DNA of 64,000 bases from Acutalibacteraceae bacterium (lineage in GTDB: Bacteria; Bacillota; Clostridia; Oscillospirales; Acutalibacteraceae). Positions 388 to 16,517 of the stretch are shown piece by piece. The notes beneath the pieces are model-generated. The model was given only the letters and a program-made list of their open reading frames with translations. It had not been told where the DNA came from and ran no database searches. Each line of letters opens with the position of its first letter. Position 1 is the first letter of the stretch. Made by a program: the position numbers and the translations under genes. The DNA is taken from assembly GCA_036307305.1 (NCBI GenBank), contig JAXJXV010000021.1, forward strand, positions 68,276-132,275. The letters run 5' to 3'.

Positions 388-399
388 GTAATTAGATTT
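363..399. repeat. att-like site A, overlapping the stop codon of the truncated recombinase gene
   Basis: caggctgctatcaaggaatctaagtaattagattt matches 17894..17928 at 32 of 35 positions by hand alignment, including a 23-nt identical run, aaggaatctaagtaattagattt. Confidence 0.7.
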
Positions 400-443
400 T
401 TGTAGGGACAGGCGTCCTCGACTGTCCGTTATAAAACAAAACT

Positions 444-472
444 ATCCGCCCGAGAAATCGGGCGGATTTTTC
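444..472 (+). terminator. rho-independent terminator-like hairpin
   Basis: atccgcccga-gaaa-tcgggcggat followed by ttttt. The same stem arms recur at 17942..17967. Confidence 0.65.
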
Positions 473-527
473 TATATCTATTGCAATTTTTCTACAAATC
501 ACTATAACGAAAATTGGAGGTGTTTTT

Positions 528-893
528 ATGGATGATTGGAGATTAAACGGACAAGAAGAATATCTTTCCAATAAAACGCTTTACAAAATTATTTTTCCCG
601 ACTTTTGGAAAACTGCTTACGAAAACAGAAACGTTTTCTTCCAAAAAATCGAACAATATGCTAGAAAGCATATTGAAACTACCAATCGTGGACACGAGTT
701 TTTGGAAGGCGAAAAAATCCAACATTTTTGGCATGAGCATTGCGAATTCTGTTGGGAAAAGGCTTTAACCGATAAAGAATGCTCCTTTTACTGTACAGAA
801 GATATGCGGTATTGGGTATGTGAAGAGTGTTTTAACGATTTCAAAGAAAAGTTTAATTGGGAAGAAAAGTCGGTAGAAGAATTGCACTTATAA
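528..893 (+). CDS. hypothetical Cys/His-rich small protein (possible zinc-binding)
   Basis: 121-aa ORF with a GGAGG RBS (ttggaggtgtttttATG). Contains the cluster HEHCEFCW...CTEDMRYWVCEECF. No family recognised. Confidence 0.6.
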   Translation: MDDWRLNGQEEYLSNKTLYKIIFPDFWKTAYENRNVFFQKIEQYARKHIETTNRGHEFLEGEKIQHFWHEHCEFCWEKALTDKECSFYCTEDMRYWVCEECFNDFKEKFNWEEKSVEELHL

Positions 894-894
894 T

Positions 895-950
895 TTCCCT
901 CTTTTGCTGATAGTACCACAGGCTGCTATAAAGGAATTGAAGTAATCGGA
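895..950. repeat. att-like site B (diverged copy)
   Basis: gatagtaccacaggctgctataaaggaattgaagtaatcgga matches site C at 32 of 42 positions. The upstream tccctctttt tract is also shared with 17868..17880. Confidence 0.6.
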
Positions 951-1089
951 AAAATCCGAGCATTTCAGTTCCAATTAAATCGGGAAAATGCTGAAGATTT
1001 CATCAAAGCATTCCGCCCGAACCAGCGACTCCACTCCTTCGATGATATAACCGTTGAAGTGTGGATTTAGCTAGTAAATATAAGCATTT

Positions 1090-1125
1090 AGCCCACTATC
1101 GAAGAAATTCGGTAGTGGGCTTTTT
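1090..1125 (+). terminator. rho-independent terminator following a gene remnant
   Basis: gcccactatcgaa-gaaa-ttcggtagtgggc followed by ttttt. Confidence 0.6.
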
Positions 1126-1272
1126 GTGTGTTCGCACATTTGTTATAGCTCTGTTTTCTGCTAAAATGCACTCGTAAACAGATAAAGAAAGCGAGGTGCA
1201 AAATGCCGCAAAATCGGGATAGCTTTAAAGGGTGTAATTGAAAAAGTGTACCCGATCGGGACAGTCGAGATT

Positions 1273-1476
1273 ATGAATAAAATAGCTGAATTCGTAAAAA
1301 TGCAAAGAAAGACGGCTCATTTAAGCCGTGAAAGGTTTGCTGAACTATCAGGACTTGGTGTTCGCTTCATTAGAGAACTTGAAAGCGGTAAAGAAACGCT
1401 CCGTATGGATAAAGTCAACCAAGCCCTTGCTATGTTCGGTATGGAAGCCGTTCCCGGACGAAAGTGGGATGATTAA
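1273..1476 (+). CDS. XRE-family helix-turn-helix protein, HipB/Y4mF-like antitoxin type
   Basis: The HTH core is LSRERFAELSGLGVRFIRELESGKETLRMDKV. The in-frame ATG at 1273 is the preferred start. An overlapping ATG at 1469 opens only a 14-codon ORF where a HipA-like partner would be expected. Confidence 0.65.
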   Translation: MNKIAEFVKMQRKTAHLSRERFAELSGLGVRFIRELESGKETLRMDKVNQALAMFGMEAVPGRKWDD

Positions 1477-1592
1477 GAAAAAAATTAAGAGAGGAATAGC
1501 TTTTTCGGGTTGAAGCTTTATGACTTTAACTCATTGCGTTTTACTACAAATTATGTTATAATAATAAAAATAGAAATCAAGAGGAATGTTTT

Positions 1593-2315
1593 ATGGAAGA
1601 TAAAAAAGAGCTTCGATTTGATTCAAAACAAAAAATAGAGCATTATAAAAAAGTCAAAACTAGTCCGTGGCCATATTTAATGATAGTAGCGTTAGTGTTG
1701 TTATTTGATACAGTAATTCTATATCTTCGTTTTTCTGATTATTATGGAAATATAGATGGAACTGCTATTATTCTTACTGTTGTATTTTCATTGATTTTTA
1801 TTGCGTTCTTTGTTGCATATTGGAATATTACAATCGATATGCAAATCACAAAATATAAGAAGCTGGTAGTTGAAAAGGAAATTACAGAGATTCCGGAAAG
1901 TTTGGAGTTGGATATTGATAAGAATCTTATAAAATTAAGTTTTAAATATTTAGATCAGTATTATCTGCAAACACGTGAACATGCTCAAAAAGGTTTTGCG
2001 GTTACTATTGGAGTTTCAATAGTAGGTGCTTTTATCCTCGCTGGAGGAATAATCGCATTGTTTCTGGGTAAAACAAGTCCAGCATATGTCACTACCGCAA
2101 CTGGAATAATAACCGAGTTTATTTCTGCTATTTATTTTTATCTGTATAATAAAACAGTACAAGGAATGGGTTCATATCATAATAAACTAGTTCTTTCCCA
2201 AAACATTGCATTAGCTTTGAAATTGTCAAATTCGCTTGAAAATAAAAGCGATGAAGCAAAATTAAATATTATTAACGAACTTGTAAAGGATATTAATACA
2301 CATATAGAAAAATAG
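1593..2315 (+). CDS. membrane protein with about 4 TM helices; the C-terminal 2-TM module resembles, from memory, TRADD-N-associated membrane domains
   Basis: RBS is aagaggaatgttttATG. Hydrophobic helices are PYLMIVALVLLFDTVILYL, AIILTVVFSLIFIAFFVAYW, FAVTIGVSIVGAFILAGGIIALFLG and TTATGIITEFISAIYFYLY. Confidence 0.6.
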   Translation: MEDKKELRFDSKQKIEHYKKVKTSPWPYLMIVALVLLFDTVILYLRFSDYYGNIDGTAIILTVVFSLIFIAFFVAYWNITIDMQITKYKKLVVEKEITEIPESLELDIDKNLIKLSFKYLDQYYLQTREHAQKGFAVTIGVSIVGAFILAGGIIALFLGKTSPAYVTTATGIITEFISAIYFYLYNKTVQGMGSYHNKLVLSQNIALALKLSNSLENKSDEAKLNIINELVKDINTHIEK

Positions 2316-2321
2316 AATTTA

Positions 2322-2350
2322 GCCTATCGCAGAAATGCGGTAGGCATTTT
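2322..2350 (+). terminator. rho-independent terminator
   Basis: gcctatcgc-agaaat-gcggtaggc followed by atttt. Confidence 0.55.
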
Positions 2351-2429
2351 AAATGTGCGATTTTGAAATTCGTATAGTCGCAGTTTGTTTCTCCTTTTGC
2401 TAAACTTTGGGCATAAGGAGGTGCTGACT

Positions 2430-2729
2430 ATGACACGGTTTATAGAAGAATTTTATTACGGAAATATTGATCCGCAGGCACGTAGTACGAAGCAAAACAA
2501 GACGGTTCAAAAGCAAATGGAAGTGTTGATGAAGACGGAAGATCTGCTCACGAACACTCTGACTGATGAGCCGAAGAAATGGTTTCTTGATTTCTCGAAT
2601 GCGTGGAGTGTGGTCAATGGTGAATCCAATCTTGACAGTTTTATTATGGGATTTCGCCTCGGTGCTAACTTTGCTTGCGATGCTTTTATCTCAACCGAAA
2701 CACCATTCGAGGACTTGTTAAAGAAATAA
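2430..2729 (+). CDS. small conserved hypothetical protein of mobile elements
   Basis: An aaggagg RBS lies 8 nt before the ATG at 2430. The product starts MTRFIEEFYYGNIDPQ. The function is not recognised. Confidence 0.6.
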   Translation: MTRFIEEFYYGNIDPQARSTKQNKTVQKQMEVLMKTEDLLTNTLTDEPKKWFLDFSNAWSVVNGESNLDSFIMGFRLGANFACDAFISTETPFEDLLKK

Positions 2730-2962
2730 AATTAATTAAAAAAGCACAGCAGATAGAATAATAACTCTGTCCGCTGTGCTTGTTTTTATGTTCAAGAGAA
2801 AACATCTGTATTATCTTAGCGAGCAGACCGTTTGTACTCCTGTTGTCGCAAAACAGTACTCGTTAGGGACACCCTAATACCCGTCTGCAATTTTCAAAAT
2901 CGCACATTCGTAAAAACAAACCTCTTTTGGTACAATCAAAGCATCAAAGGAGGTTTTGCTAT

Positions 2963-3334
2963 ATGAAAACATTATTCGAACAACTCGGCGGCACCTACAC
3001 AATGCAAGGCGATTACTGCTTGCCGAATCTTCTTCCACCCAACGAAGAAGAACGTCCCATCGGCGTTTGGGGACAGCGCCGTTTGCACTACCTAAAGCAC
3101 CACCGCAAAGTCCTGTACTATAACCTGCTCACAGCCGGCAAGCTCCACTCCCACCTCTTAGACATCGAAGAACAAGCCCAAGAATTATTCAATCGCCTCA
3201 CCACCGGTCTCGCACAAAAGGAAGGCATCACCGAACAACTCAAAGCAACCGATCAAATGCAGTGGGTGCAGAAGATGAGCAACATCCGTGAGCGTGTAAC
3301 TGAAACTGTCTATTCAGATGTGGTGTACGTATGA
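2963..3334 (+). CDS. TnpV-like transposon-encoded protein (Tn4451-type accessory protein)
   Basis: aaaggagg RBS before the ATG at 2963. MKTLFEQLGGTYTMQGDYCLPNL...GVWGQRRLHYLKHHRK matches my recollection of the TnpV family. Confidence 0.55.
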   Translation: MKTLFEQLGGTYTMQGDYCLPNLLPPNEEERPIGVWGQRRLHYLKHHRKVLYYNLLTAGKLHSHLLDIEEQAQELFNRLTTGLAQKEGITEQLKATDQMQWVQKMSNIRERVTETVYSDVVYV

Positions 3335-3361
3335 GAAAACGGGAAATACATATTGATACAA

Positions 3362-3396
3362 ATAAACGGTTGAAGAAAAATCTTCAACCGTTTATT
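3362..3396. terminator. bidirectional terminator between convergent genes
   Basis: aaacggttgaaga-aaaa-tcttcaaccgttt, with A/T tracts on both sides. Confidence 0.75.
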
Positions 3397-3398
3397 TA

Positions 3399-4331
3399 TT
3401 ATATAATACTAAGTTTGGTAACGGAATTTGCTTCCAAAACATCTTTTGTTTCGTTATCTTGAAAAATTTTAAAACAAAGGTAACGAATTAGTAAAGACGT
3501 TTCATCTGCGGTGCTAATCTTGAAATCGCCCGAATCATCAAGCGGTATATGTAACATCTCGGCAACTTTCTTTCGACTACGTTTATCCTTGATTCTATTT
3601 ACTCTCTCTGTTTTCAGTGTAATAAAAGTGCGAGAAGACTTGTACTGTGTAGCAAGAGATTTAAATGTTTCAACATTGCTAAAGGCATTTGTATTTACAA
3701 TTTCATCGATGGCTTCATTTTTTACTTTTGCCATTGTTTTTTCAAGATTAAACAATGTTTCAAAAGTGTGATTAAATGTATACATTGCGCCGTTATACAC
3801 AATTAGGTCGACGGTTAAATACAAACGACAAACATCGTCAGTTATTAAATCGAGTTCGTCATTTGCTGTTGTAGAGAATACTACTGATTTTTTGTTACTG
3901 AGTTTAGTTATAGGGTTAGCCAGCTTTATAAACGTTACGGGATTATCTTCTTCGGTAGAAGGTTGTCCATACAGTATATAACCGTTAATTCTTCCTTCAA
4001 TCTTTTGGTCAGAAGAAGCAGCTACCGCACTATTAAACAATGACCACTGCTCGGATACTAACTCATCCGTTATTAGTAACTTATCGCAAGATACTTTGCT
4101 ATTCTCTCCATCATAACTTTGCACATTGCTTATGGGTTCGATTTGAAAGTTTTCCGTTGCATTTAATAAATTAGATGCATATTGTGAAAGATAAGTTCCA
4201 TTCTTGAAACGAACTTTACTCACTTTATAAGGTTGTTTGCCACGGTTATCTATCTTGAAGAAGTATAAAGACCAACTATAACTATGTTCTTTTAGTGAAG
4301 AACACATGCTTTTTAGTATTTCTTTGCTCAT
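3399..4331 (-). CDS. KwaB-like protein (candidate Kiwa component, DUF4868-like)
   Basis: 310-aa soluble protein whose start overlaps the stop of the upstream 4-TM gene by 4 nt. Size and gene pairing fit Kiwa. The domain assignment is from memory, not a search. Confidence 0.45.
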   Translation of the reverse strand: MSKEILKSMCSSLKEHSYSWSLYFFKIDNRGKQPYKVSKVRFKNGTYLSQYASNLLNATENFQIEPISNVQSYDGENSKVSCDKLLITDELVSEQWSLFNSAVAASSDQKIEGRINGYILYGQPSTEEDNPVTFIKLANPITKLSNKKSVVFSTTANDELDLITDDVCRLYLTVDLIVYNGAMYTFNHTFETLFNLEKTMAKVKNEAIDEIVNTNAFSNVETFKSLATQYKSSRTFITLKTERVNRIKDKRSRKKVAEMLHIPLDDSGDFKISTADETSLLIRYLCFKIFQDNETKDVLEANSVTKLSII

Positions 4332-4966
4332 TCCTTTTCACCTTTGCTTTCCGTAATGTATATATAATTATCGAAATCCCAATACGATACATTATTTTGT
4401 TCTTCTTGAGTGAGGTCATCTTTGCTTATGACAAGACTATCATGATAGGTATGTTTCTCTTCAAGGATAGTACATTCAAGGTCACAGATAAACATTCGAT
4501 ATCCTTTGAATTCCAAGAAGATATTTGTATAAATATTGTTATTTCTTATACACAGAAAAGCCAAAACTGCAAAATAAATCAAAAATAAAGATAGATTTTG
4601 AAGATCGCCAAAATCAAAAGCAATCATAGGCAAAATATACGCGAGCAAAAACTCTGAAGATAGCTTGTTTGCTTTTGTTGCTTTAAGGACGGTTGCTTTA
4701 GGATTATCATCAGAGGAGTTTAATTTTTTGAGGAAAGCATTTATTCCGCCTATACTGCAAAGAACTACAATAACTATTGCAATAATACTAATTACCTGAA
4801 TACAACCTTCGCTTAATGAAGTAACTATATTTTCTAAAGTTTTAACTTTTTCATCCCATTTATCCATTACGATTAAAACAAAATCCCATGTGTCTATAAC
4901 AATAATAGAAATCCATAGGGGGATAAAAGATGTAACAAACATATCCCATTTAAATTTTCTCCACAT
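4328..4966 (-). CDS. KwaA-like 4-TM membrane protein (candidate Kiwa component)
   Basis: 212 aa with RBS agaggtga. Four hydrophobic helices (FVTSFIPLWISIIVI, IQVISIIAIVIVVLCSIGGINAF, FLLAYILPMIAFDF, LSLFLIYFAVLAFLCI) are followed by a soluble tail of about 70 aa. Confidence 0.45.
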   Translation of the reverse strand: MWRKFKWDMFVTSFIPLWISIIVIDTWDFVLIVMDKWDEKVKTLENIVTSLSEGCIQVISIIAIVIVVLCSIGGINAFLKKLNSSDDNPKATVLKATKANKLSSEFLLAYILPMIAFDFGDLQNLSLFLIYFAVLAFLCIRNNNIYTNIFLEFKGYRMFICDLECTILEEKHTYHDSLVISKDDLTQEEQNNVSYWDFDNYIYITESKGEKE

Positions 4967-5130
4967 AAAACGCTCACCTCTTTTTTATGATTTAACAGAA
5001 ACTTTAATTATAGAAAGTAACGACCGCATATTGCCGTTAGTTTAACAACACAGCAGAACACTTTTTCTCTATTAAATAACTACACTATTTGTTGGATTAT
5101 AGCTTTGATTATATATGTTTTTCATGGTTT

Positions 5131-6390
5131 CTATTGCTTTTTTATTTCTCTTATTATCCATACTGCACCGAATATAACAAAGATGCCCATGACAATCCAA
5201 AAGGAAATATTGAACGGGAGTTTAAACTCGGTCTGTAATACTTGTAGAGTTTGAGCACTGCCAAACAATGCAAGTATGTATAGAAGGATATTTAGCAAGC
5301 GACCATTGTTACTGATTTTCCTATCTTGATAAATGTTTAGCGTCTTTAATTTGAAGTCAATTGCTTGTTTATATCTTGTAAATGAGTAGGTGTTTTTTAG
5401 ATTATCAATCATATTTAAAGTGATAATTGGAACATGACGCGGGTACAATTGACTTTCTGCATAAATTTGATGATCGACTATTTCATCTAGTTTATGGTGT
5501 ATTTCATAGTCTATTATCATTTTTAATAATATAAAAATCTTAAAACCTTCAAGAATCATACAATCATTAAGAATATGATGCTTTTCCATTCCGTTACTGA
5601 TATCAGTAACCACACCTAAATACTCTGTGGAATAAAAATTGAATGCGTCTGTTGCCGAAATGTTTTTCACATTAAAATCTTCAACTTTTCCTCCTAACAC
5701 GCATTGAAAATATTCCGTAATGTTCTCTAACTTATTAGATAAAACGAGAATGTTATGAACATAACTATAGTTTCCAACTTCCCATTTATTGTTTGATGAT
5801 TTTGTCAAAAAACCATATACATTTTTAAAAATGATATCAGATATCTTACGATGGTCTTCTGAAAACTCCGCTTCATTAAAATACTTTATTTTATCAATAG
5901 GTTTGATTCCGAAATTATTAGATCTTCCATAAATAGCTTTTGACTCTAATGGAATACCAGTCTTAAAATCGATTAATTCAAAATTTACAATTAATGAACC
6001 GCTCATTATAAATGCTACAGGATCAACTTGATATACCACCTCTCCAAACATAACAAGAAAACGTTCCAAATTAAAGCAAGTATTAATTTGGATAAGCGTA
6101 GGATCTAAGAGCGCATTTGCTGAATGTTGGAGATAAAGAGTGGTCATCATCTCGTCAGCAAACTTTGCATAAGTCTTGTTATATTCTTCAAAATTCTTTT
6201 CAAAGTGAAATGCTGTAACTTGATTAAGAGAGTTGTATTCAGCCGTGTAATGACATTTAGCATAGGGAGTAATATAGGTGTTGTTGTGGGAAAAACCTGC
6301 TATGTGGAACTGAGTCCAAAAATCTTTCTTTGCTTTTTTTCCGAATCGAAAATGATGTCGTTCTATTTTATGAATGTTATAAGCGGTCAT
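5131..6390 (-). CDS. hypothetical 419-aa protein with a soluble N-terminal region and a C-terminal two-helix membrane hairpin
   Basis: Long ORF in the AT-rich block. The C-terminus reads LLNILLYILALFGSAQTLQVL ... FNISFWIVMGIFVIFGAVWII REIKKQ. There is no recognisable catalytic motif. Its own SD is weak, but an upstream micro-ORF overlaps its start codon in an ATGA. Confidence 0.7.
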   Translation of the reverse strand: MTAYNIHKIERHHFRFGKKAKKDFWTQFHIAGFSHNNTYITPYAKCHYTAEYNSLNQVTAFHFEKNFEEYNKTYAKFADEMMTTLYLQHSANALLDPTLIQINTCFNLERFLVMFGEVVYQVDPVAFIMSGSLIVNFELIDFKTGIPLESKAIYGRSNNFGIKPIDKIKYFNEAEFSEDHRKISDIIFKNVYGFLTKSSNNKWEVGNYSYVHNILVLSNKLENITEYFQCVLGGKVEDFNVKNISATDAFNFYSTEYLGVVTDISNGMEKHHILNDCMILEGFKIFILLKMIIDYEIHHKLDEIVDHQIYAESQLYPRHVPIITLNMIDNLKNTYSFTRYKQAIDFKLKTLNIYQDRKISNNGRLLNILLYILALFGSAQTLQVLQTEFKLPFNISFWIVMGIFVIFGAVWIIREIKKQ

Positions 6391-6461
6391 AAATACAACG
6401 GTTTCTTTTCTGTATTTGTCTTCGGTTGAACATCGTGCTTTATTTTCTTATATTTAGCCAT
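6387..6461 (-). CDS. 24-codon lysine-rich micro-ORF (MAKYKKIKHDVQPKTNTEKKPLYL), translationally coupled to the 419-aa gene
   Basis: It is below the ORF-track length cutoff. A strong SD (ggggaggtg) lies about 8 nt upstream of the ATG at 6461. Its TGA stop (6389..6387) overlaps the ATG of the downstream gene (6390..6388). Confidence 0.4.
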   Translation of the reverse strand: MAKYKKIKHDVQPKTNTEKKPLYL

Positions 6462-6515
6462 TCTCCGCACCTCCCCAATTATTTGAATACAACAATTATC
6501 TTTCTCAAAGCCCGT

Positions 6516-7631
6516 TTAAAATACAAATTGACATGTTCCTCCGCCGAGCCAGTTTACCTTCTTTGATATGCCGCCTTTTTCTCCGGAAACAACTTGTTCC
6601 ATGCGTTTGATAACATAGTCGCAAGTTTTATATTCACTTTCAATGCCGATATAATTACGATTGAGTTTATGAGCTGCAGAAACAGTCGTGCCAGAACCCA
6701 AGAACGCATCCATAACGAGCTCATTTTCATTTGTAGCAATCTCGATTATTTGACCGATCAATGTTTCTGGTTTGGGCGTATCAAATATATCTTTGTCATA
6801 AATTTTTAATGCTTTCAAATGCGTTTTGGCATCTTTATTTGTGCCAACAAATGACGACAACCATAAAGTTTCTGGTACAACACCACGTGGTCTATCCTTT
6901 AAAAACTTTTTGGCACGGGGGACTCCGTTACCATCATTACCAAACCAAATGTTGCCTTGAGCAATTTCCTCAGTCATTTTTTCCTTATTATAGATCCAGC
7001 ATCTACCTTTTGGAGGAGTATGAATTTTTCCGTTCGGGGCAATTATCTCGTAAAACTGGCTTTCAACTGCATGCCCATCTTGGACGTTAACGGATACAGA
7101 TTGCCATGGCCCTCTAGGATCGTTATCTGGATTATGGTAGCGAGTCAACACATCTTCGGTGATCGGTAACAAATTTCGTTTTTTCTTGAATAATTCAGGA
7201 TTTGGAGAATAAACCAAAATGTACTCATGATTATTTGAGAATGCTTTTCTGTTTTCACGGGTGTTTCTTTGCTGCCATATTAACGTTGTTACAAAGGATT
7301 TTCTACCGAAAATAGTGTCACACAACACTTTTAAGTAGTGCATTTCACCATCGTCTATAGATATCCACAAACTCCCGTCATCCTTCAAAAAATCCTTAAG
7401 TTCTCGCAAAACTTGTTCCATCTGCTTCAACCAATTGTCATGGGATTGTACATCGGAATAATATGTATATTTCTCCCCGTTGTTATATGGTGGATCGATA
7501 TAGATACAGCTTACCTGTTTATCGTAAATTGCGTGAAGGCTCTTTAATACATCTATATTATCCCCGTTAAAAACAACATGAGGGTTCTTTGAGTATTCTC
7601 TTTTCCATGTTGAGAAATCTAAATTAATCAT
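6516..7631 (-). CDS. site-specific DNA methyltransferase, beta-class N6A/N4C (N6_N4_Mtase type, Mod-like)
   Basis: Motif IV IYIDPPYN lies N-terminal to motif I AFLGSGTTVSAAHKLNRNYIGIE. Confidence 0.85.
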   Translation of the reverse strand: MINLDFSTWKREYSKNPHVVFNGDNIDVLKSLHAIYDKQVSCIYIDPPYNNGEKYTYYSDVQSHDNWLKQMEQVLRELKDFLKDDGSLWISIDDGEMHYLKVLCDTIFGRKSFVTTLIWQQRNTRENRKAFSNNHEYILVYSPNPELFKKKRNLLPITEDVLTRYHNPDNDPRGPWQSVSVNVQDGHAVESQFYEIIAPNGKIHTPPKGRCWIYNKEKMTEEIAQGNIWFGNDGNGVPRAKKFLKDRPRGVVPETLWLSSFVGTNKDAKTHLKALKIYDKDIFDTPKPETLIGQIIEIATNENELVMDAFLGSGTTVSAAHKLNRNYIGIESEYKTCDYVIKRMEQVVSGEKGGISKKVNWLGGGTCQFVF

Positions 7632-7643
7632 AAAACTCTCCTA

Positions 7644-8981
7644 TTATTTACAAACAATAAGCAATTCTGCTTCATCATTTGATTCAAAATTTTTGTCTAC
7701 AGAATTTAGTTTACTGTGAGTGAATTTTCCCGGAGAAACAACTTTTACATCCTCGAAATACTGATTTGCTTTTTCAATCAATTGATCGATTGTCTGCAAC
7801 CGAGGAGTAACTGCTTTTGAAGCATCAAAAGGAGAATATGATAAGACCAGAGGAACTCCCAGTTCTCTGACTTTTTGAAACAATTTATCAAATGCTTCTT
7901 CGGCCTCACTTTTTATGCAAAAAGGAGATTGATGTCTACCTGTTCGATAAATAGCACGGCTTATTCCGCCTTTGCCATTAGGGAAGGTTGTTGTAACTTT
8001 TGGGTTATCACGCAGACAAATAGTTTCAAGAACATGATAGTATCGACTATAATGGTAGCGTGTATATGGTGGATCGGCATATACTGCTGCTACCGGTATG
8101 CCTTTCAATTTATCTATAGCTGTAATGTAATCATCACAAATCATAGTATGTTTATGTTGTGTTTGGCCTATAGATAAGTAATAATTCAACCACCTCTCAT
8201 AAGTGGTATACACATCTTCATTTCTGTCTTTGAGTATTTTTTTTAGCAGTGATTTTTTTAATTCACCTTTAGAGTTTCGAACTTTAAGAGGTTGGGCGAA
8301 TTGTTTTCCTACCGTGTTTACTAAATCGCTTGCAGTGCTCAAAAGTGCAGCCAAGGATTTTGTTTTTAAAACACCATTTTGCCCAAATACCCAGTGTGCG
8401 ATACAGTCCATATCTATGGCCTGTTTGTATGAGTAATATAAGCCGCCATAGTATCTGCATATCATACTGTCTGCATGTGCAATGTTTTTGTTGGCATAAA
8501 GTTTATCAAAAGAAACTTTAATAGCATGTTTTAGTGCTCTAGATAAGCCAACTGATTCCTCGTGTTCAAAAATGTATAAAGAACCACACTCTATTATTTC
8601 GTATAGATGTTGATAACAGCCCTTTTCTGCAGACTCGATGCATTCTTTTTCGTGAGCAATCAATGACGTAAAAATATTATTGATTTCTGCTGTTTGGGGG
8701 TGACTTTTTATATTGTCTATTATCTCATTTGCTGGAACAGGCGAATTAATGAAGCTTGTAGAAGCTTCACATAAAACTTTTGAATACTCTTGAATATCGA
8801 CTGATATCACATCATAGGTATGAAGTAGATATTTAGATACTGTTCCGGAACCAGAAAAAAGATCACAAATCGCACCAGGGGTGTCTACGACCTCTAATAA
8901 GGCTTTTTCAATAGAATCCAGCATTCGCAGTTTGCTTCCTAAATAGTGAATAGGACGCACTTCTTTAGTTTCTTTGTTCAT
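7644..8981 (-). CDS. DNA adenine methyltransferase, D12/Dam-like class
   Basis: IHYLGSKLRML (Dam YxGxK signature), DLFSGSGTV (motif I) and VYADPPYTRYHYSRYYH (motif IV). Confidence 0.8.
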   Translation of the reverse strand: MNKETKEVRPIHYLGSKLRMLDSIEKALLEVVDTPGAICDLFSGSGTVSKYLLHTYDVISVDIQEYSKVLCEASTSFINSPVPANEIIDNIKSHPQTAEINNIFTSLIAHEKECIESAEKGCYQHLYEIIECGSLYIFEHEESVGLSRALKHAIKVSFDKLYANKNIAHADSMICRYYGGLYYSYKQAIDMDCIAHWVFGQNGVLKTKSLAALLSTASDLVNTVGKQFAQPLKVRNSKGELKKSLLKKILKDRNEDVYTTYERWLNYYLSIGQTQHKHTMICDDYITAIDKLKGIPVAAVYADPPYTRYHYSRYYHVLETICLRDNPKVTTTFPNGKGGISRAIYRTGRHQSPFCIKSEAEEAFDKLFQKVRELGVPLVLSYSPFDASKAVTPRLQTIDQLIEKANQYFEDVKVVSPGKFTHSKLNSVDKNFESNDEAELLIVCK

Positions 8982-8985
8982 GTGC

Positions 8986-10233
8986 TCATTCCTTATCTAA
9001 TCTTTGCCATATTGATAATGAGGGTATATTGTCTAAAACTTCTTTTGCCGTAAAAGTTAGTCGGCGCATTTTAGTTGTATGTTTTTCTTTTTTAGAAATA
9101 AAGGACAGGGCTTGATCGTATACATCTTGTTCCGGCATTAGCAATGTATAGATAAAATCACGTTGTGATACCCTTGCAAATACCGCAATTGGACGATTCC
9201 CATTTGAAGGATATGCCAATCCGTTTGCAGCTTCTAATTCAAAACGATAATTTTGGCTTGAAACAGAAACACTGGGGCGTATCTCTGTCTCACACATACT
9301 TCCATCAGAATTTACGCATTTTAGAAGAATTCTGTAGGCGCCATTCTCTCCACAGGTTGCTCCAAAATAGTTTTCAAAAGTATTTTTGTCAAAATTAGCT
9401 TGTTTCCAGCGATTGCCGCTTCTTGGAATTTCAGCGATCAATACATCACTGTCGGATGTTATTGTCCAGTATGAAGCATCAATATCAATTTCTTCGTCTG
9501 TAATAGGAAGCGTAATGATATCTACTTTCTCTTCTTTTTTAGGAGTCGTATCTGCTTCTACGACTTTAACCGACGGTTGTTTTATATCTTTTGGCTGATT
9601 CTTGTAAATGTTTGCTAATTCATCAGTAACTTTTTGTTTAGTAGAATTTTTCTTTACAGATGCTTTTGCGACACTTACAGCTCTTGTTTGTTCTGTGTTC
9701 TGCTTCGCTCTTGCCATGACAATCGGATCATCTATGTCAAACAAAAATGGCAAACTGTGTGTATACCAAGAATTCCATTCTTCAGTGACTCTATCCATAT
9801 TTTCAGCATCGTACGGAATTACACTGTATGCTTCTCTATTATGTCGAAGTCCTTTTTGCGTTAAATTTCCAGATCCTAACACTAACACTCCGCCTTCTTG
9901 TTTTTCAAACCAAGAAAACTTTGGATGGAAAGTGGATCCTTTATTGCTATGTATATAAGCTTTTACTATCAAGTGGTCATTATATTTTTTCTTCAATTCT
10001 ATCAGGGTATTTACTGCGTGTTCGTTGGTAATATCATCAGTTCCGACAATTAAGGTAAAAACACCCTTCTGAAGGAAAGATTTGAAGTTTTCGTCTTCAA
10101 AAAGAAGGTTGATACCATCTTTTGAAGCAAACGCGTATGCACCGCCGCCACGTTTGCTTCCAACGCATTCGCTAAGTAAAGTTTCGTGTAAATACATTGA
10201 GGTTTTATATGAAGGATCTTGGATATAAAGCAT
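8986..10233 (-). CDS. PLD-superfamily (single HKD) nuclease with a Lys-rich linker and an extra C-terminal domain; BfiI/NgoFVII-like restriction endonuclease candidate
   Basis: One HKD-type motif, FHPKFSWFEKQEGGVLVLGSGNLT (HxK...GSxN). The linker is KKNSTKQKV...TTPKKEEKV. A C-terminal domain of about 170 aa follows. The gene sits 4 nt upstream of two methyltransferase genes. Confidence 0.65.
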   Translation of the reverse strand: MLYIQDPSYKTSMYLHETLLSECVGSKRGGGAYAFASKDGINLLFEDENFKSFLQKGVFTLIVGTDDITNEHAVNTLIELKKKYNDHLIVKAYIHSNKGSTFHPKFSWFEKQEGGVLVLGSGNLTQKGLRHNREAYSVIPYDAENMDRVTEEWNSWYTHSLPFLFDIDDPIVMARAKQNTEQTRAVSVAKASVKKNSTKQKVTDELANIYKNQPKDIKQPSVKVVEADTTPKKEEKVDIITLPITDEEIDIDASYWTITSDSDVLIAEIPRSGNRWKQANFDKNTFENYFGATCGENGAYRILLKCVNSDGSMCETEIRPSVSVSSQNYRFELEAANGLAYPSNGNRPIAVFARVSQRDFIYTLLMPEQDVYDQALSFISKKEKHTTKMRRLTFTAKEVLDNIPSLSIWQRLDKE

Positions 10234-10251
10234 AAAGAAATCAACTCCTCT

Positions 10252-11148
10252 TTAGTTCTCGTTATACGCACGATCGATAAGCGGTTTAGCTTTTTCAAAG
10301 TCTGCAGCATTTTGTAAATGAAGTTCTACAGCACCACAGCCCCAGTGACCAATATTAGTCACGTCTCGTGAAAATCCCGGCTCAAATGTTACTGAAGTAA
10401 CATCAATAGGCAGGTTCAAAATCAGCTTTTTCTTTAGTGCAACTACTGTTACAATGTTACGGATTTTCTTGAAAGCGGCGTAAAGCTTCAAGTGAGTTTC
10501 GGAAACATCATCACCAAGACTGAGGATATAATTAGTTAGATCTTGATATAAAGTTTTTACTGATTCATCAGCCGTCTTTAATTGTTCGTCAAATGTTTTA
10601 TCGGTGGATTTTGTCTTAGTGGTTTGAGCGTCATTGTCGGGAATTGCTGTTGCAACATTTTCATTGATGTGTTCAAACATCAACAGATCGCTGCCAAATT
10701 TCTTATATCTAATCAGGCTGACATTTCTATTCATTTGCTTAATAGCAGATTCATCGTACTTTGTGAAGTCGCCAGCAATACAAACAACACGAGGCATTGT
10801 CCAGTCAATCTTGTCTGCTTCTTTGAGTCCGAGTTTTTCAATTACTAAAACCTTAAAACTATCCTTATGATCTAAAAGCCAGTTAAGATAAAACAAACCT
10901 TGATTGATTACATTCTCTTTCATAGAACGTTTATATTCGAAGATGACCGGACAATGGTTTTCATCAATACCGATGCTATCCATTCGACCACCATCTGTTG
11001 TCTTGTATTCAGAAGCAAGAAAAGTTACACCGAAAAAGATTTCCATATTATTTTCAATAACGGTCTGTAACTCTTTTTCAAGTGTTACGTTGCCGCTTTG
11101 GTATTCTTTTACCTTGCCGTTTATGTTAAAAAGTTTTATATCAGCCAT
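10252..11148 (-). CDS. NucS/DUF91-like PD-(D/E)xK endonuclease domain fused to a DUF5655-like C-terminal domain
   Basis: GRMDSIGIDENHCPVIFEYKRSMKENVINQGLFYLNWL fits the D...ExK...Q..Y pattern of NucS-like nucleases. The C-terminal LYAAFKKIRNIV...GHWGCGAVE resembles DUF5655, from memory. Confidence 0.6.
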   Translation of the reverse strand: MADIKLFNINGKVKEYQSGNVTLEKELQTVIENNMEIFFGVTFLASEYKTTDGGRMDSIGIDENHCPVIFEYKRSMKENVINQGLFYLNWLLDHKDSFKVLVIEKLGLKEADKIDWTMPRVVCIAGDFTKYDESAIKQMNRNVSLIRYKKFGSDLLMFEHINENVATAIPDNDAQTTKTKSTDKTFDEQLKTADESVKTLYQDLTNYILSLGDDVSETHLKLYAAFKKIRNIVTVVALKKKLILNLPIDVTSVTFEPGFSRDVTNIGHWGCGAVELHLQNAADFEKAKPLIDRAYNEN

Positions 11149-11452
11149 TTTCTTTGTCCTCCAACTCTAACTTTGCAAGTTTTGCTTTTAGGAAATCTAT
11201 TTGAAACTGCATATTCGTAATAATAAGATTATCAGCAACTTGATAAAGGCTAACACTTCCGCTTACTGCTTGCTTTGCTTTAGTTGCTAATGCTAACTCG
11301 GCATCTGTAATTTGAAGCGATGTTATCTTTTCAATCGCATTGTTACGATCAAGAAAACCGCTCGTTTGAAATTGATAAACAATTTTTTCTCGCTCGGCTA
11401 TATCCTTTGCAAGGGATAATTTATCGTATTCTTTTTTTATTGGGTTACTCAT
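11141..11452 (-). CDS. small (103 aa) predicted alpha-helical/coiled-coil protein, first gene of the operon
   Basis: RBS is ggagcaaatATG. Its stop overlaps the downstream start by 8 nt. No motif recognised. Confidence 0.6.
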   Translation of the reverse strand: MSNPIKKEYDKLSLAKDIAEREKIVYQFQTSGFLDRNNAIEKITSLQITDAELALATKAKQAVSGSVSLYQVADNLIITNMQFQIDFLKAKLAKLELEDKENG

Positions 11453-11562
11453 ATTTGCTCCATTCTGTTATCCCTCATATGTCTACAAAACTCGCATCAA
11501 TGGTGCAAATTTTAGCAAGAGAGATGATATGTGTGGGGGAATAGTTTATTTATTTTTATATG

Positions 11563-12162
11563 TTAACTATGTAGCAGTATCTCCATAATGTCCATCACTT
11601 TATTGTAAACCCTCAGCTTCTTTGCGTAATCGGAAAGGGCGATGAGGTTTTTCTGCGTATCGTTTGCGTATGCATTTACCGCTTTACTGAACATTTCGTT
11701 ATCTACCTTGCCACGATGCTTGAACATATCGCAAATGGTGCGCTCACGGTCGTAAATAGCAAATGTAACGCCATTTTCGGTAATCGTGGTTTTACCGAGC
11801 TCATAGATATCGTCTTTAACGTAATAGACCTTTATCGGCACGGAGGTATTAAGCCTGCGTGATGCACTTCTCGGCACGGTAACAGACCAAACCCTCGGCA
11901 TAAAATCGCTGTAGCCATAACGGAACAGAGCCGATTCCATACTGATGATCGCTTCGGGAATGGTAGAAGCGATTACCTGCTCATCGGAGAGGATCAGCTC
12001 GTCTGCAAGTTGATAATAGCCTTGACGGACACGCTGAAGAAAGCCGTCTGAACACAGCTTATATATCTTCTCTTTTGGCACGCCGGCGGATGTGAGAGCA
12101 GACAGCTTTGCAATTCCGCCGTTGGCACTGATTATGTTTTTTATAATATCTTTATGTTCCAA
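11563..12162 (-). CDS. AbiEi-like (type IV toxin-antitoxin antitoxin / wHTH regulator), no cognate AbiEii present
   Basis: N-terminal wHTH is IISANGGIAKLSALTSAGVPKEKIYKLCSDGFLQRVRQGYYQL. The C-terminal domain has SMESALFRYGY...IYDRERTICDMF. The likely start is the TTG at 12162, 7 nt after GGAGG, rather than the longer ORF-track start. Confidence 0.65.
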   Translation of the reverse strand: MEHKDIIKNIISANGGIAKLSALTSAGVPKEKIYKLCSDGFLQRVRQGYYQLADELILSDEQVIASTIPEAIISMESALFRYGYSDFMPRVWSVTVPRSASRRLNTSVPIKVYYVKDDIYELGKTTITENGVTFAIYDRERTICDMFKHRGKVDNEMFSKAVNAYANDTQKNLIALSDYAKKLRVYNKVMDIMEILLHS

Positions 12163-12377
12163 TGTCCTACCTCCAATAAACGATAACACATTGTGTTTAA
12201 TGTTTTCTTTTGTATTATAGCACAAGTGTGTGAATATAGCAATAAAAAATCGAAACAAAAATCAATTTGTGTTATCATTTTTTGAATTCAATTGCTTCTT
12301 TGGCGCTTATCGAAAGATAGGCGTCTTTTTTTATGCCTATTTTTTTAAACACCCTTGTGGATCGGGGTATCCCTGTG

Positions 12378-12917
12378 CGAATTGGTGAAGGGTTCTCTCA
12401 AACGCACCTTGAAAACTGAATAGCGCCGATCTAATACGACTTTGCGATGATACGAGCAAGGCAACGCTACGGTGAGATTCCGAGCAGGAACTTGAGGTTG
12501 GGCAAAAAAATTTTTTCAAAAACACCCGATAATTTACGGCTGCTCTGTGGGAACAAGTGAGAGGAAATTTTGCAAACAGACTTAAAAAATACCCTTTCCC
12601 ATTGCAAATAAGTGAGGAAATAAAAATTTTCTCTCAAAAAGGGTGTGTATTTAGGCTTTCCCAGTGGGAATTAGTAGAGGGGTAAATATTTTTTTGCGAT
12701 TTGGGTGTCCAAAACACTGCTCCCATTGCAGATAAGTGAAGGGCAAAAAAATATTTTTCAGAAATCTCGACAAATGGGTGTCCAAAACAGCACCTCTTGT
12801 CCGAATGAGTGAAGGGATAAATTTTTTCTTCGAGTCGGGTGTGCAAAAGCATTCCTTAAATTCCTAATTAGTGAGGGGGTGCAAATCGGGGGTGTAATTC
12901 CAAATAAGTGAAAGGAG
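12378..12917. repeat. degenerate iteron-like array (7-8 copies; core AAnTnAGTGArGGG plus GGGTGTCCAAAAC-like half)
   Basis: Cores lie at about 12378, 12551, 12604, 12666, 12728, 12800, 12862 and 12899. Four of the spacings between neighbouring cores are about 62 nt. Confidence 0.6.
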
Positions 12918-13024
12918 GTGTTGTCAAACCGCAAAAACAGTCGGAGGTCTTAAATATATAAATAAATATATAACTTACTCTCCGAAAAAGAATGAATTTT
13001 TAATCTATAGAAAGGAGTGAGCAA

Positions 13025-13327
13025 ATGGCAAACAACAAGGTCTACAGCCGAGCAGAAATGCAGGAAGCAGGCATCGTAACCTACGATTATGCTTTTATGG
13101 ACAAGCCCGGTGAATATATCGGAACGCTCGAAATGAAAGCAGAAGCAAGGGGCGGAATGCTTCGTCTTTTTCTTCGGTTGGTAGACGGAAGAAAGATCAT
13201 AACGCCGGTGTTCTGGTGGCAAGGGTATTTAGGCTTCAACGAAATGAACAACGGCACAAAGCTTAAGCTTGTCTACGGACAAAGCGGCAAAGGCAGTACC
13301 TATTTAAAACAGATCGAAAAATTTTAG
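13025..13327 (+). CDS. hypothetical protein (first gene of the recombinase-module operon)
   Basis: RBS is aaaggagtgagcaaATG. 100 aa, no motif recognised. Confidence 0.6.
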   Translation: MANNKVYSRAEMQEAGIVTYDYAFMDKPGEYIGTLEMKAEARGGMLRLFLRLVDGRKIITPVFWWQGYLGFNEMNNGTKLKLVYGQSGKGSTYLKQIEKF

Positions 13328-13339
13328 GAGGAAACAAAA

Positions 13340-13555
13340 ATGTTTGAATACAAAATCATCAAGAAAATCGGAGTTGCGGGGGAAAATCTCAACGACACAA
13401 AGGAAATCAATATCATCAAGTGGAGCGACAACGCACCGTGTATCGATGTGCGACGTTGGAGAAACGGCAAACCGCTGAAGGGCATTGCTTTTTATCCCGA
13501 TGAGATTGACGAACTAATCAAGCTACTCAAAAAAGCGAAAAAGGAGGTCATATAA
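13340..13555 (+). CDS. PC4/YdbC-like small ssDNA-binding-fold protein
   Basis: GGAGG RBS. EINIIKWSDNAPCIDVRRW...GKPLKGIAFYPDEIDELIKLL fits the YdbC/PC4-like pattern, from memory. Confidence 0.45.
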   Translation: MFEYKIIKKIGVAGENLNDTKEINIIKWSDNAPCIDVRRWRNGKPLKGIAFYPDEIDELIKLLKKAKKEVI

Positions 13556-14470
13556 ATGGCAAGAAAATCAGATTTTACTCTGCCGCCGATCCCCATTGAT
13601 GCCATCTTTTCAACACAGGCGGAAAGAGACGATGCGCTCTTAGAGCGAGTACACAATATTCCTCTTGAGCAATTGCACCCATTCAGGGATCATCCATTCA
13701 AAATTCAGTCAGGAGAGGAAATGGATAAAATGATAGAGAGTATCCGCAAGGTTGGGGCGATAACACCTGCACTTGCACGACCGCTTGAGGATGGCGGGTT
13801 TGAGCTGATATCGGGACACCGCAGACTTGCTGCGTGTCAAGTATTGGGACTTAAAACAATGCCCGTAATTGTTCGTGAAATGACAGATGATGAGGCGGTG
13901 ATCGCAATGGTAGATGCAAATTTGCAAAGAGAAACCATACTCCCCAGCGAAAAGGCGTTTGCTTATCGGATGAAGTTGGAAGCAATAAAACACCAAGGTA
14001 GGAGTATTTCCCGACAACTTGTCGGAAAGGAAAGCGCTGACACACTTTCAAATGATGAAAGCGGCAGACAAGTCCAAAGATATATCCGCCTAACATACCT
14101 CATCCCCGAATTACTCACCAAGGTAGACGAAGGCGAAATTGCTTTCAGTCCGGCGGTAGAAATCTCATTCTTGACAGAGGATGAGCAAAGAATCCTGCTT
14201 GATGCAATCGAACTAAACGACTGCACGCCTTCCCACGCACAAAGCATACGGCTGAAAAAGCTATCGCAGGACTGTGTACTGACCAAAGACCAAATATACG
14301 AACTGATGGCGGAGGAAAAGCCGAACCAACAGGAGCATTTGCGGTTTCGCAGAGAGGATTTCAACGGATATTTCCCTAAGTCCTACACCGAACAGCAGAT
14401 AAAGAAAGATATCCTGAAAGGTTTAGAGCTTTTGCACCGCCACCGACAGCGAAACCGTGATGCGAGATAA
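13556..14470 (+). CDS. ParB/Srx N-terminal domain protein (ParB-like nuclease domain)
   Basis: LHPFRDHPF...FELISGHRRLAACQVLGL...MPVIVRE is the classic ParB-N box. Confidence 0.8.
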   Translation: MARKSDFTLPPIPIDAIFSTQAERDDALLERVHNIPLEQLHPFRDHPFKIQSGEEMDKMIESIRKVGAITPALARPLEDGGFELISGHRRLAACQVLGLKTMPVIVREMTDDEAVIAMVDANLQRETILPSEKAFAYRMKLEAIKHQGRSISRQLVGKESADTLSNDESGRQVQRYIRLTYLIPELLTKVDEGEIAFSPAVEISFLTEDEQRILLDAIELNDCTPSHAQSIRLKKLSQDCVLTKDQIYELMAEEKPNQQEHLRFRREDFNGYFPKSYTEQQIKKDILKGLELLHRHRQRNRDAR

Positions 14471-14499
14471 GAATCGCACATTTGTAAAGGAGGAGCACT

Positions 14500-14688
14500 A
14501 TGATTACAATTATTAAGGATAAAAATCCTAACCATATTTTCGCCGCCTTAAAGCTTTGCGAACAGCTTTATCACGACGGCAAAATTCCGTTATATATGTT
14601 TCGAAATATGGTAAATCAGCACGCTGACGTGGTGGATGCCTCGAAATTTAATTTCACCATTCAGCAGGAAGGAGAAAAAGCCGGATGA
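14500..14688 (+). CDS. small hypothetical protein, ATGA-coupled to the recombinase gene
   Basis: aaaggagg RBS. Its stop overlaps the ATG at 14685. Confidence 0.55.
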
Positions 14689-16439: not shown

Positions 16440-16486
16440 TATGTAATTTTAACGAAATTAATTTCGTAGCATAAAACAATCAATCC

Positions 16487-16504
16487 CCTCGGAGCAATCC
16501 GAGG
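16487..16504 (+). terminator. hairpin after the recombinase gene (no clear T-tract)
   Basis: cctcgga-gcaa-tccgagg. Confidence 0.35.
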
Positions 16505-16517
16505 GAGGAGATTTGAT

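Follow-up and report, generated by a model that had tools for sequence, protein, structure and literature searches.

A mosaic defence cargo in a gut Clostridia mobile element and a channel-like protein family linked to restriction-modification genes

Which of the genes crowded beside a large serine recombinase in a gut Clostridia genome belong to described defence systems, and which do not? The question is raised by a 64,000-nucleotide (nt) stretch of DNA, hereafter the window, from a metagenome-assembled Acutalibacteraceae genome (assembly GCA_036307305.1, contig JAXJXV010000021.1, positions 68,276 to 132,275). Between window positions 3399 and 12162, nine open reading frames (ORFs) and one 24-codon ORF are found, every one on the minus strand (Table 1); ORF calling confirmed the coordinates and strands reported for them in the initial annotation. 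Plus-strand ORFs in this block do not exceed 116 amino acids (aa) and are short shadows nested in minus-strand genes. In NCBI the products of the block are MEE0946862-70, mostly labelled 'hypothetical' or by domain names.

The block is the defence cargo of an integrated mobile element whose own genes include TnpV, a ParB-like protein and a large serine recombinase. The proposal that a defence-gene cluster rides here as cargo beside a large serine recombinase holds, on the Pfam matches to Resolvase and Recombinase domains, ParB_N and TnpV. The modules are, in the direction of transcription, an AbiEi gene, a leader gene, PDC-S18, a BfiI-like restriction-modification (RM) system, a gene for a 443-aa membrane protein and Kiwa. 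The block is made almost entirely of named systems, and only the 443-aa membrane-protein gene is uncharacterised. The island is ordinary overall, with one new candidate gene, which in the window is split between the 24-codon ORF (or micro-ORF) and a 419-aa ORF. The explanation that we favour, with a probability of roughly 0.55, is that of a mosaic defence cargo in which the 443-aa protein is a pore-forming second-line effector co-inherited with RM systems.

Recurrent linkage of the 443-aa family to restriction-modification genes

The surroundings of the 443-aa gene were compared in 14 non-redundant contexts. The window and locus L001 count as one context, as do L002 with L015 and L007 with L012 (Table 1). 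Eight of the 14 contexts are linked to RM genes. In these the 443-aa gene is always located downstream and on the same strand, and at least three independent RM lineages are represented. The distance is short: in 6 of the 14 contexts, an RM methyltransferase gene of the same strand ends 2-54 nt before the 443-aa gene. The RM enzymes of the three RM groups are mutually unrelated or only distantly related. Recurrent RM linkage of the family in other genomes is shown by these comparisons. The adjacency exceeds the expectation from co-residence in islands, in a sample that is small and phylogenetically clustered. Proximity of homologues of 5131-6461 to defence genes was a test proposed by the initial annotation, and the homologues do adjoin such genes.

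The MmeI contexts are informative on how the linkage is maintained. Loci L014, L015 and L016 share only a 4.1-kb pair made of the MmeI gene and the 443-aa gene, and their flanks are unrelated; therefore, the pair moves as a unit. At L007 and L012 the 443-aa gene is apparently alone, and a remnant of an MmeI C-terminus (residues 868-926, 56-57% identity) ends 24 nt before it. This remnant, corresponding to about the last 59 codons, is found at 7802-7977 of L007 and 9793-9968 of L012, upstream of an intact lone homologue of the 443-aa gene. It is located in a 1.4-kb stretch without called gene, between housekeeping genes of the efp region.

Other genes were also observed in the neighbourhood. 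An AAA_14/DUF4143 ATPase gene lies beside the 443-aa gene at L001 (11460-12854, minus strand) and at L017 (9944-11218, plus strand). The upstream RM systems of these two loci differ (phospholipase D (PLD) type and type III, respectively). The ATPase gene may belong to a common backbone or be one more gene associated with the family. SLFN_AlbA_2 proteins are encoded near the 443-aa gene at L017 (1149-2573) and L019 (785-1597), one of them also having a HATPase_c_4 domain. At L019, the SLFN_AlbA_2 gene ends 3 nt before the 443-aa gene.

Table 1. Features of the window and genomic contexts of the 443-aa gene. Positions refer to the window unless a locus is named; for the contexts, the distance to the 443-aa gene is given after the upstream neighbour.
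Feature	Position or locus	Strand	Description
Single gene of ~443 aa, uncharacterised family	5131-6461	-	Split into 24-codon ORF 6387-6461 and 419-aa ORF 5131-6390
1-nt deletion (frameshift) site	6405-6406	-	DNA alignment with three homologous loci
KwaB, DUF4868 DNA-binding Kiwa subunit (predicted), 310 aa	3399-4331	-	Start overlaps kwaA stop by 4 nt
KwaA, Kiwa membrane subunit (predicted), 212 aa	4328-4966	-	PADLOC, NCBIfam
Beta-class N6/N4 DNA methyltransferase, 371 aa	6516-7631	-	Closest to type III Mod-like models
Alpha-class (D12/Dam-like) N6-adenine DNA methyltransferase, 445 aa	7644-8981	-	Pfam, PADLOC
BfiI/NgoAVII-like restriction endonuclease (predicted), 415 aa	8986-10233	-	PLD domain, linker, DNA-binding domain
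PDC-S18 candidate defence protein, 298 aa	10252-11148	-	NucS/DUF91-like PD-(D/E)xK nuclease and C-terminal DUF5655
103-aa leader gene	11141-11452	-	Stop overlaps next gene by 8 nt
AbiEi-family winged-helix regulator/antitoxin, 199 aa, orphan	11563-12162	-	PADLOC, Pfam
Promoter-like site	12214-12242	-	TTGCTA-17-TATAAT, extended -10 TG; consensus match only
240-aa protein, three hydrophobic segments	1593-2315	+	Pfam CyanoTRADDas_TM, E = 5e-16
TnpV	2927-3334	+	Pfam
ParB_N-domain protein	13556-14470	+	Pfam, E = 5e-17
Large serine recombinase	14685-16439		Pfam Resolvase and Recombinase domains
Context: BfiI-like RM	Window, L001		Beta-class methyltransferase, 54 nt
Context: type III Res/Mod	L017		Mod, 3 nt
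Context: type III Res/Mod	L018		Mod, 2 nt
Context: MmeI family	L002/L015		MmeI, 17 nt
Context: MmeI family	L014		MmeI, 20 nt
Context: MmeI family	L016		MmeI, 43 nt
Context: type I/IIG RM	L030		Methyltransferase, S subunit, AAA_15/21 ATPase, then 93 nt
Context: AlbA_2 gene	L019		AlbA_2 gene, 3 nt
Context: AbiEi/AbiEii	L004		AbiEi/AbiEii, 445 nt
Context: conjugative element	L005		697-aa protein (weak InlB B-repeat match only), ~160 nt
Context: Fic/Zn-finger neighbourhood	L011		DUF4379 protein
Context: short contig	L009		258-aa protein without assigned family
Context: alone	L028		No upstream neighbour
Context: apparently alone	L007/L012		MmeI remnant

Predicted structure and proposed role of the 443-aa protein

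Neither the 419-aa nor the 443-aa form of the protein matches a family in Pfam, NCBIfam, PHROG or PADLOC, or a sequence in the PDB. A 61-member alignment of the family finds no Pfam family, and its profile finds no PDB relative and no CorA. The family is rare, with 87 clusters among 1.84 billion representatives. A profile search of 185,579 species genomes, using a 25-sequence alignment, identified 8 loci, all in gut or rumen Clostridia, and a scan of metagenome contigs returned only two short loci. No relatives were found by tblastn in PLSDB plasmids and INPHARED phages, nor by a scan of IMG/VR contigs.

In the AlphaFold2 model of the 443-aa protein (pLDDT 86.9, pTM 0.81), residues 21-290 form an alpha/beta domain. 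Three helices come next, then a helix of 55 residues (360-414) that enters the membrane, and finally a second transmembrane (TM) helix (418-442). The N-terminal alpha/beta domain is new, as modelled. The first TM segment, TM1, is polar (N387, N392, Q405, T406, Q408, E413), and the TM region holding it is the best-conserved part among distant homologues; TM2 is simply hydrophobic. The basic residues that precede TM1 and follow TM2 suggest a cytoplasmic location for both termini.

Search of the PDB with this model using Foldseek returned CorA Mg2+ channels as all of the top 18 matches. The same search against the BFVD viral structures gave nothing above a probability of 0.14. In addition, the PADLOC model 'CorA-like' (PDLC01174) is matched at about 1e-5 by 3 of 71 family members, two of the 61 aligned ones and the distant P0136. 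P0136, the one match with coordinates shown, is collinear with the model over the C-terminal stalk and TM module only. The predicted 443-aa protein thus bears a weak resemblance in layout to CorA-type effectors, and we do not assign it to the CorA family.

CRISPR-associated CorA proteins combine a unique N-terminal domain with a CorA-like C-terminal module and have been proposed to form a ligand-gated pore (PMC10600005). In its predicted layout, the 443-aa protein is like the CorA effectors of type III CRISPR systems, which are gated by SAM-AMP: a large, family-specific cytoplasmic domain at the N-terminus, then a long stalk helix, then two TM helices at the C-terminal end. For both, an infection-triggered membrane pore is the proposed action. 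The surroundings differ: cas genes, the NrN phosphodiesterase and the SAM lyase are found in none of the 14 contexts of the 443-aa gene, whose neighbours are RM genes.

A role can be proposed on this basis. Located directly behind the BfiI-like RM system, the 443-aa gene is probably co-transcribed with the RM genes. The N-terminal domain and the C-terminus would be cytoplasmic, the former serving as a sensor. The protein may oligomerise through the long stalk helix and the polar, conserved TM1, as CorA-type channels do. A signal made during infection would then open the pore, and the membrane potential would collapse. The protein would be a second-line effector of the abortive-infection type that is inherited together with RM systems. 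A candidate for the trigger is that the neighbouring RM system fails or is inhibited.

A conceptual precedent exists in PrrC-EcoprrI, where an abortive-infection effector is encoded inside an RM locus and held in check by the RM system. In both cases a gene for a non-RM effector is kept in an RM operon, suggesting a back-up when restriction is countered. In contrast, PrrC is an anticodon nuclease, soluble and bound to a single type I system, whereas the 443-aa family is made of membrane proteins found behind at least three RM types, and its interaction with RM is putative. A more far-reaching version of the proposal is speculative, and on balance we consider it unlikely. It states that the family is a new class of membrane effectors functionally wired to BfiI-like, type III and MmeI RM systems. 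Its members would be CorA-like pores acting as an abortive-infection back-up or 'guard', firing when RM is overwhelmed or inhibited or when a signal related to S-adenosylmethionine (SAM) or to DNA cleavage appears, in a PrrC-EcoprrI-like, modular and portable arrangement.

Several points weigh against the pore-forming effector. The defence role is argued from guilt by association, and the 14 contexts reduce to about 3-4 independent RM-linkage events. No extant RM neighbour is present at L004, L005, L028 or, after MmeI loss, L007/L012; intact copies of the gene without RM make an obligate RM partner unlikely. The CorA matches of the Foldseek search are weak (E = 0.02-0.2, probability 0.23-0.72, TM-score 0.16-0.23). 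The window protein itself does not match the PADLOC CorA-like model. None of the 61 family members searched matches Pfam CorA (E <= 1), and none of the 61 aligned carries the GMN motif, the consensus of the TM1-TM2 loop being QTEFGLPF. Comparison of the family profile with E. coli CorA using hhalign gave a probability of 1.3%. Hidden Markov model matches over TM segments can arise from composition, not homology. Finally, the frameshift that splits the window copy could be an assembly error, the 419-aa form being seen on one contig of a metagenome-assembled genome only.

The main rival to an RM-coupled effector is stand-alone, single-gene defence. The 443-aa protein would be a self-sufficient defence or toxic effector, found in RM operons for transcription or through shared hotspots only, with no coupling. 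We regard this as possible, though rather unlikely. Intact copies without extant RM are found at L004 after AbiEi/AbiEii, at L005, at L019 after AlbA_2 and at L028 alone, and the L007/L012 gene is still full length after decay of MmeI. Moreover, because RM systems are the commonest defence genes, some RM adjacency is expected. Against this, the 443-aa gene is always downstream, on the same strand and after gaps of 2-54 nt across three unrelated RM types, and it travels with MmeI as a unit into unrelated flanks. In addition, the RM enzymes have diverged within lineages (54-63% or 71-76% identity) and the adjacency has been kept, which argues for long-term linkage.

A role outside immunity is improbable. 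The protein would then be a divergent cation channel or transporter, or serve a mobile-element function such as entry exclusion or maintenance, in variable regions. Its only structural neighbours are indeed CorA Mg2+ channels, one copy (L005) is located in a conjugative element beside relaxase and type IV secretion system-like genes, and no PADLOC model is matched by the window protein. But the family has neither the GMN motif nor sequence similarity to canonical CorA. Its rare and patchy distribution (the 87 clusters and 8 loci given above) is the pattern of an accessory gene, not of a housekeeping gene. Defence or mobile-element genes directly adjoin it in 10 of the 14 contexts, and the searches of sequenced plasmids, phages and IMG/VR contigs found no member. 

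Modules of the defence cargo

DNA comparison with other loci delimits the parts of the cargo. Window region 5132-10303 aligns with L001 at 83% identity, and the match stops exactly at the stop codon of the 443-aa gene. Region 10244-11481 aligns with L023-25 at 87% identity. Region 11143-11497 aligns with L020-22 at 84% identity, the homology with these loci being limited to that span. The Kiwa genes are common to none of the compared loci. Since homology breaks at gene ends, the leader gene, PDC-S18 and the RM system with the 443-aa gene are separate units. As judged from these breakpoints, the cargo is a mosaic of independently exchanged modules. What had been described as a five-gene nuclease/methyltransferase operon is instead a mosaic of three such modules.

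The spacing of the genes in the block is operon-like. The 103-aa and 298-aa genes overlap by 8 nt. From there to the second methyltransferase gene the gaps are 18, 4 and 12 nt, with 54 nt to the micro-ORF and 164 nt from the 443-aa gene to kwaA; kwaA and kwaB overlap by 4 nt.

On sequence and model comparison, 6516-10233 is a BfiI-like type IIS RM system. The 415-aa protein is predicted to contain an N-terminal PLD nuclease, a disordered linker (about 199-244) and a C-terminal DNA-binding domain. It matches Pfam PLDc_2 (E = 7.7e-6) and RE_NgoFVII (E = 2.5e-3), and the PLD motif H103-P-K105 ... G120-S-G-N-L-T125 is invariant across 52 homologues. A PDB sequence search gave no informative match for this protein. 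The best Foldseek match of its AlphaFold2 model (pLDDT 83.1, pTM 0.80) is BfiI (2c1l_A, E = 7.9e-12, probability 1.0, 447 aligned columns), covering both domains; the NgoAVII R-protein (4rct_A) is matched with E = 3.5e-7 over 437 columns. The global TM-score to BfiI and NgoAVII is only 0.39-0.43 because a flexible linker joins the domains.

Both methyltransferase genes adjoin the PLD gene, with the gaps of 4 and 12 nt given above. The 445-aa enzyme matches MethyltransfD12 (Pfam, E = 7.1e-13) and MTase_II (PADLOC, E = 2e-26), with FSGSGT N-terminal and DPPY C-terminal. The motif order is reversed in the 371-aa enzyme (DPPY N-terminal, FLGSGTT C-terminal), which matches N6_N4_Mtase (Pfam, E = 2e-49) and MTase_III (PADLOC, E = 5.6e-97). 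If other type IIS systems are a guide, each methyltransferase would modify one strand of an asymmetric site. The system resembles BfiI and NgoAVII in its HxK...GSxN PLD motif, the structural match of two domains and the two adjacent methyltransferase genes. Differences are the 13% identity to BfiI, the disordered linker of about 45 residues between the domains of the 415-aa protein and the different classes of the two methyltransferases in the window (alpha D12 and beta N6/N4).

The 298-aa protein matches the PADLOC model PDC-S18 (PDLC04946) with E = 6.7e-130, residues 1-297 aligning to positions 18-322 of a 365-position profile. Pfam DUF5655 (E = 2.8e-9) and NucS_C (0.016) and NCBIfam NucS (E = 8.9e-4) are also matched, and D57, E71-x-K73 and Q83-x-x-x-Y87 can be read from the translation. 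The initial annotation had granted clear motifs to the two methyltransferases only; these residues and the PLD motif of the 415-aa protein add to them. The 90%-identity cluster of the 298-aa protein contains 574 member sequences, one other member (WP_118366823.1) occurring on 352 contigs. A PDB sequence search gave no informative match, and no paper mentioning the name PDC-S18 was found in the literature searched. Close to full length as the match is, PDC-S18 is itself a candidate from a computational catalogue only. In the window, L001 and L023-25, it is always located between the leader region and the RM system, a placement that may or may not matter.

Of the two modules said to fit no nameable system, 5131-6461 keeps that status, as no model matches it, whereas 10252-11148 is PDC-S18. 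Every module except 5131-6461 could be assigned to an already described or catalogued system, contrary to the earlier view of the block.

That 6516-11452 is instead one novel multi-gene system, DISARM-like or Pbe-like, made of the PLD nuclease, the two methyltransferases, the DUF5655 nuclease and the 103-aa protein, is very improbable. The genes are tightly packed, with the 8-nt overlap and gaps of 4-18 nt. The PLD protein matches DrmC (E = 1e-4) and PbeA (E = 1e-6) weakly in PADLOC, and in L001, too, a DUF5655 gene immediately precedes this RM system. However, the PLD protein matches BfiI across both domains. PDC-S18 and the 103-aa gene also precede unrelated RM or defence cargo, with breakpoints at gene ends, and L001 has a different, 283-aa gene in place of the 103-aa gene. 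For DISARM there is only the weak DrmC match. Searches of the block with Pfam and PADLOC found no DrmA/DrmB helicase, no DUF1998 gene and no further Pbe component; because these core genes are absent, the PLD and methyltransferase genes are neither a DISARM nor a Pbe system.

The leader gene encodes a 103-aa protein with 192 homologues. Among those listed, identity is 70-98% and the length is almost always 100-110 aa. It has no Pfam, PADLOC or PHROG family. In other elements of gut Clostridia it is located after HTH_17 and Fic genes. At L023-25 the leader gene overlaps a DUF5655 gene by 8 nt, and a type IIG RM system and a SIR2 protein follow. At L020-22 the same 8-nt overlap leads into a type I-like N6_Mtase gene, behind which an S subunit and Hachiman genes are encoded. 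The leader gene is at 7001-7312 in loci L020-L025. From these comparisons, it appears as the conserved entrance to a variable hotspot of defence cargo in mobile elements of gut Clostridia. A function as dedicated partner of PDC-S18 was rejected, since the gene also precedes the type I methyltransferase gene and other unrelated cargo.

The first gene of the block encodes an AbiEi-family protein that matches PADLOC AbiEi over its full length (E = 3e-62) and Pfam AbiEi_4 (E = 1e-4); its NCBI name is 'abortive phage infection protein' (MEE0946870.1). No neighbour in the block matches the AbiEii nucleotidyltransferase (PF08843/AbiEii) in Pfam or PADLOC, and the genes downstream are the 103-aa leader and PDC-S18. 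The AbiEi gene is therefore an orphan, not a complete AbiE module, and at most a stand-alone regulator. An AbiEi-like regulator had been announced for this position, and it stands as a strong match to AbiEi, not as a complete AbiE module. Comparison with the AbiE system gives the same picture: the likeness extends over the whole protein, the difference is the missing nucleotidyltransferase, and in related elements the place upstream of the leader gene is taken by Fic and helix-turn-helix (HTH) genes. The promoter-like site of Table 1, upstream of the AbiEi ATG at 12162, is the best of the region. In total, 41 promoter-like sites were counted against a shuffled expectation of 37.5 +/- 6, and terminator counts were likewise not above shuffled; because of this, no weight is given to the scan beyond that site.

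The last two genes, 3399-4966, are assigned by profile matches to Kiwa (KwaA and KwaB). They had been described as a separate module, a four-TM protein with a 310-aa protein, without a system name; Pfam, PADLOC and NCBIfam identify the pair. For KwaA, 13 models of that name in PADLOC are matched, the best with E = 1.8e-20. NCBIfam NF041622 is matched with E = 1.1e-19 and 71 bits, which is below the equivalog cut-off of 100. The protein has three strong hydrophobic segments and a weaker one. KwaB, named 'DUF4868 domain-containing protein' in NCBI, matches Pfam PF16162 (E = 4.1e-13, 50.2 bits against a gathering cut-off of 26.3) and PADLOC KwaB (E = 5.4e-7); a PDB sequence search gave no informative match. 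The pair is like known Kiwa in its order: first the gene of a membrane protein with some four TM segments, then, overlapping it by 4 nt, that of a DUF4868 protein. It differs as a divergent Firmicute version, KwaA remaining below the equivalog cut-off and KwaB matching the models in their central part only. In Kiwa, tetramers of KwaA and dimers of KwaB assemble into a membrane supercomplex, which senses membrane stress from phage entry or conjugation and stalls phage DNA replication and late transcription (PMC11785009).

The interrupted window copy, its element and the wider meaning

The 443-aa family has 110 homologues, nearly all 440-445 aa long, with few shorter or fragmentary calls. Their N-termini (e.g. 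MAKHKIIKQDVQSKINTENETVVFMTAYN) are equivalent to the micro-ORF joined to the beginning of the 419-aa ORF, and their DTVVFM segment spans the junction of the two. In the DNA alignment, the window reads ACAGAAAA-GAAACC where L001 has ACAGAAAACGAAACC, and L009 and L010 are in the L001 register. The frame lost at the junction takes the near-invariant D20 and the invariant F24; the junction falls within the first beta-strand of the AlphaFold2 model (21-30), which has a pLDDT of 95. Thus, the micro-ORF, presented earlier as a gene of its own, is the initial 24-codon part of the gene downstream, separated from the rest by a 1-nt deletion as seen from the homologues and the DNA alignment. Without these codons in frame, the window copy is probably impaired, provided that the deletion is not an error of assembly. 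Because the homologues are in frame, a programmed frameshift at the micro-ORF was rejected. The ATGA overlap of the two ORFs in the window and the strong GGGGAGG ribosome-binding site before the micro-ORF would suit a separate small gene, for a leader peptide, an antitoxin or a regulator, whose translation is coupled to that of a 419-aa membrane protein. This is scarcely credible, as almost every one of the 110 homologues listed is a continuous ~443-aa protein, three homologous loci carry one extra base exactly at the junction, residues 21-30 form one confident beta-strand in the model and no ribosome-binding site of its own was found for the 419-aa ORF.

The GC content of the block is 35.3%, compared with 46.3% for the recombinase/ParB backbone (13025-16439) and 39.1% for the rest of the window. 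The AT-richness claimed for the block is confirmed with respect to the backbone and modest with respect to the rest of the window. Equal-size windows elsewhere have 34.8-42.1%, which places the block at the low end, within the range. Only kwaA (30.5%), the 443-aa gene (31.2%) and kwaB (33.5%) are clearly low; the AbiEi gene (44.8%) is near the backbone value. GC skew is negative at 3-12 kb and positive in most of the window. A megablast of the entire block against plasmids gave no match, and an Rfam scan of window positions 1-17000 found no RNA family.

On the backbone side, the recombinase gene is split by one in-frame TAG (15207-15209) into a 174-aa ORF with the Resolvase domain and a 407-aa ORF with the Recombinase domain. 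Both ORFs share one frame, and the sequence around the stop is ...GAC CGA GTG TAG AAA ATC GTG... Either the recombinase is a pseudogene, leaving the island immobilised, or the TAG is a sequencing error. The ParB_N protein (13556-14470) has a weak PADLOC match (E = 5e-7) to a type II methyltransferase model, limited to the N-terminal 90 residues, which probably reflects ParB-like domains fused to some methyltransferases.

On the other side, DUF6809 and TnpV genes (2385-3334, plus strand) converge on the kwaB end. TnpV is known from Tn4451-type elements moved by a large serine recombinase, which agrees with the backbone located at 13-16.4 kb. No left boundary of the element was found, and it may lie before the window start. 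The 240-aa protein at 1593-2315 lies outside the block and adjoins the DUF6809 and TnpV genes. CyanoTRADDas_TM, its Pfam match, is a TRADD-N-associated 2-TM domain of a kind described in conflict and immunity systems; no PADLOC model matches the protein. PADLOC on the flanking genes (1-3334 and 12634-14470) gave nothing significant.

The island itself adds little. It is a further mosaic of defence cargo, in which Kiwa is combined with a PLD-type RM system, a PADLOC candidate and an AbiEi without partner. What is new here is the RM-linked, channel-like 443-aa family, of which the window copy is probably defective, together with the leader gene that marks a cargo hotspot. The 8-nt overlap of the leader is fixed despite interchangeable cargo, and the gene could anchor mining for new defence systems. 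The 443-aa family is unannotated and combines a confidently predicted structure with a channel-like C-terminus, and it is repeatedly the last gene of unrelated RM operons. If it does encode an RM-coupled effector, these operons would provide a compact layered immunity, with restriction first and membrane collapse second, and CorA-like effectors would extend beyond type III CRISPR.

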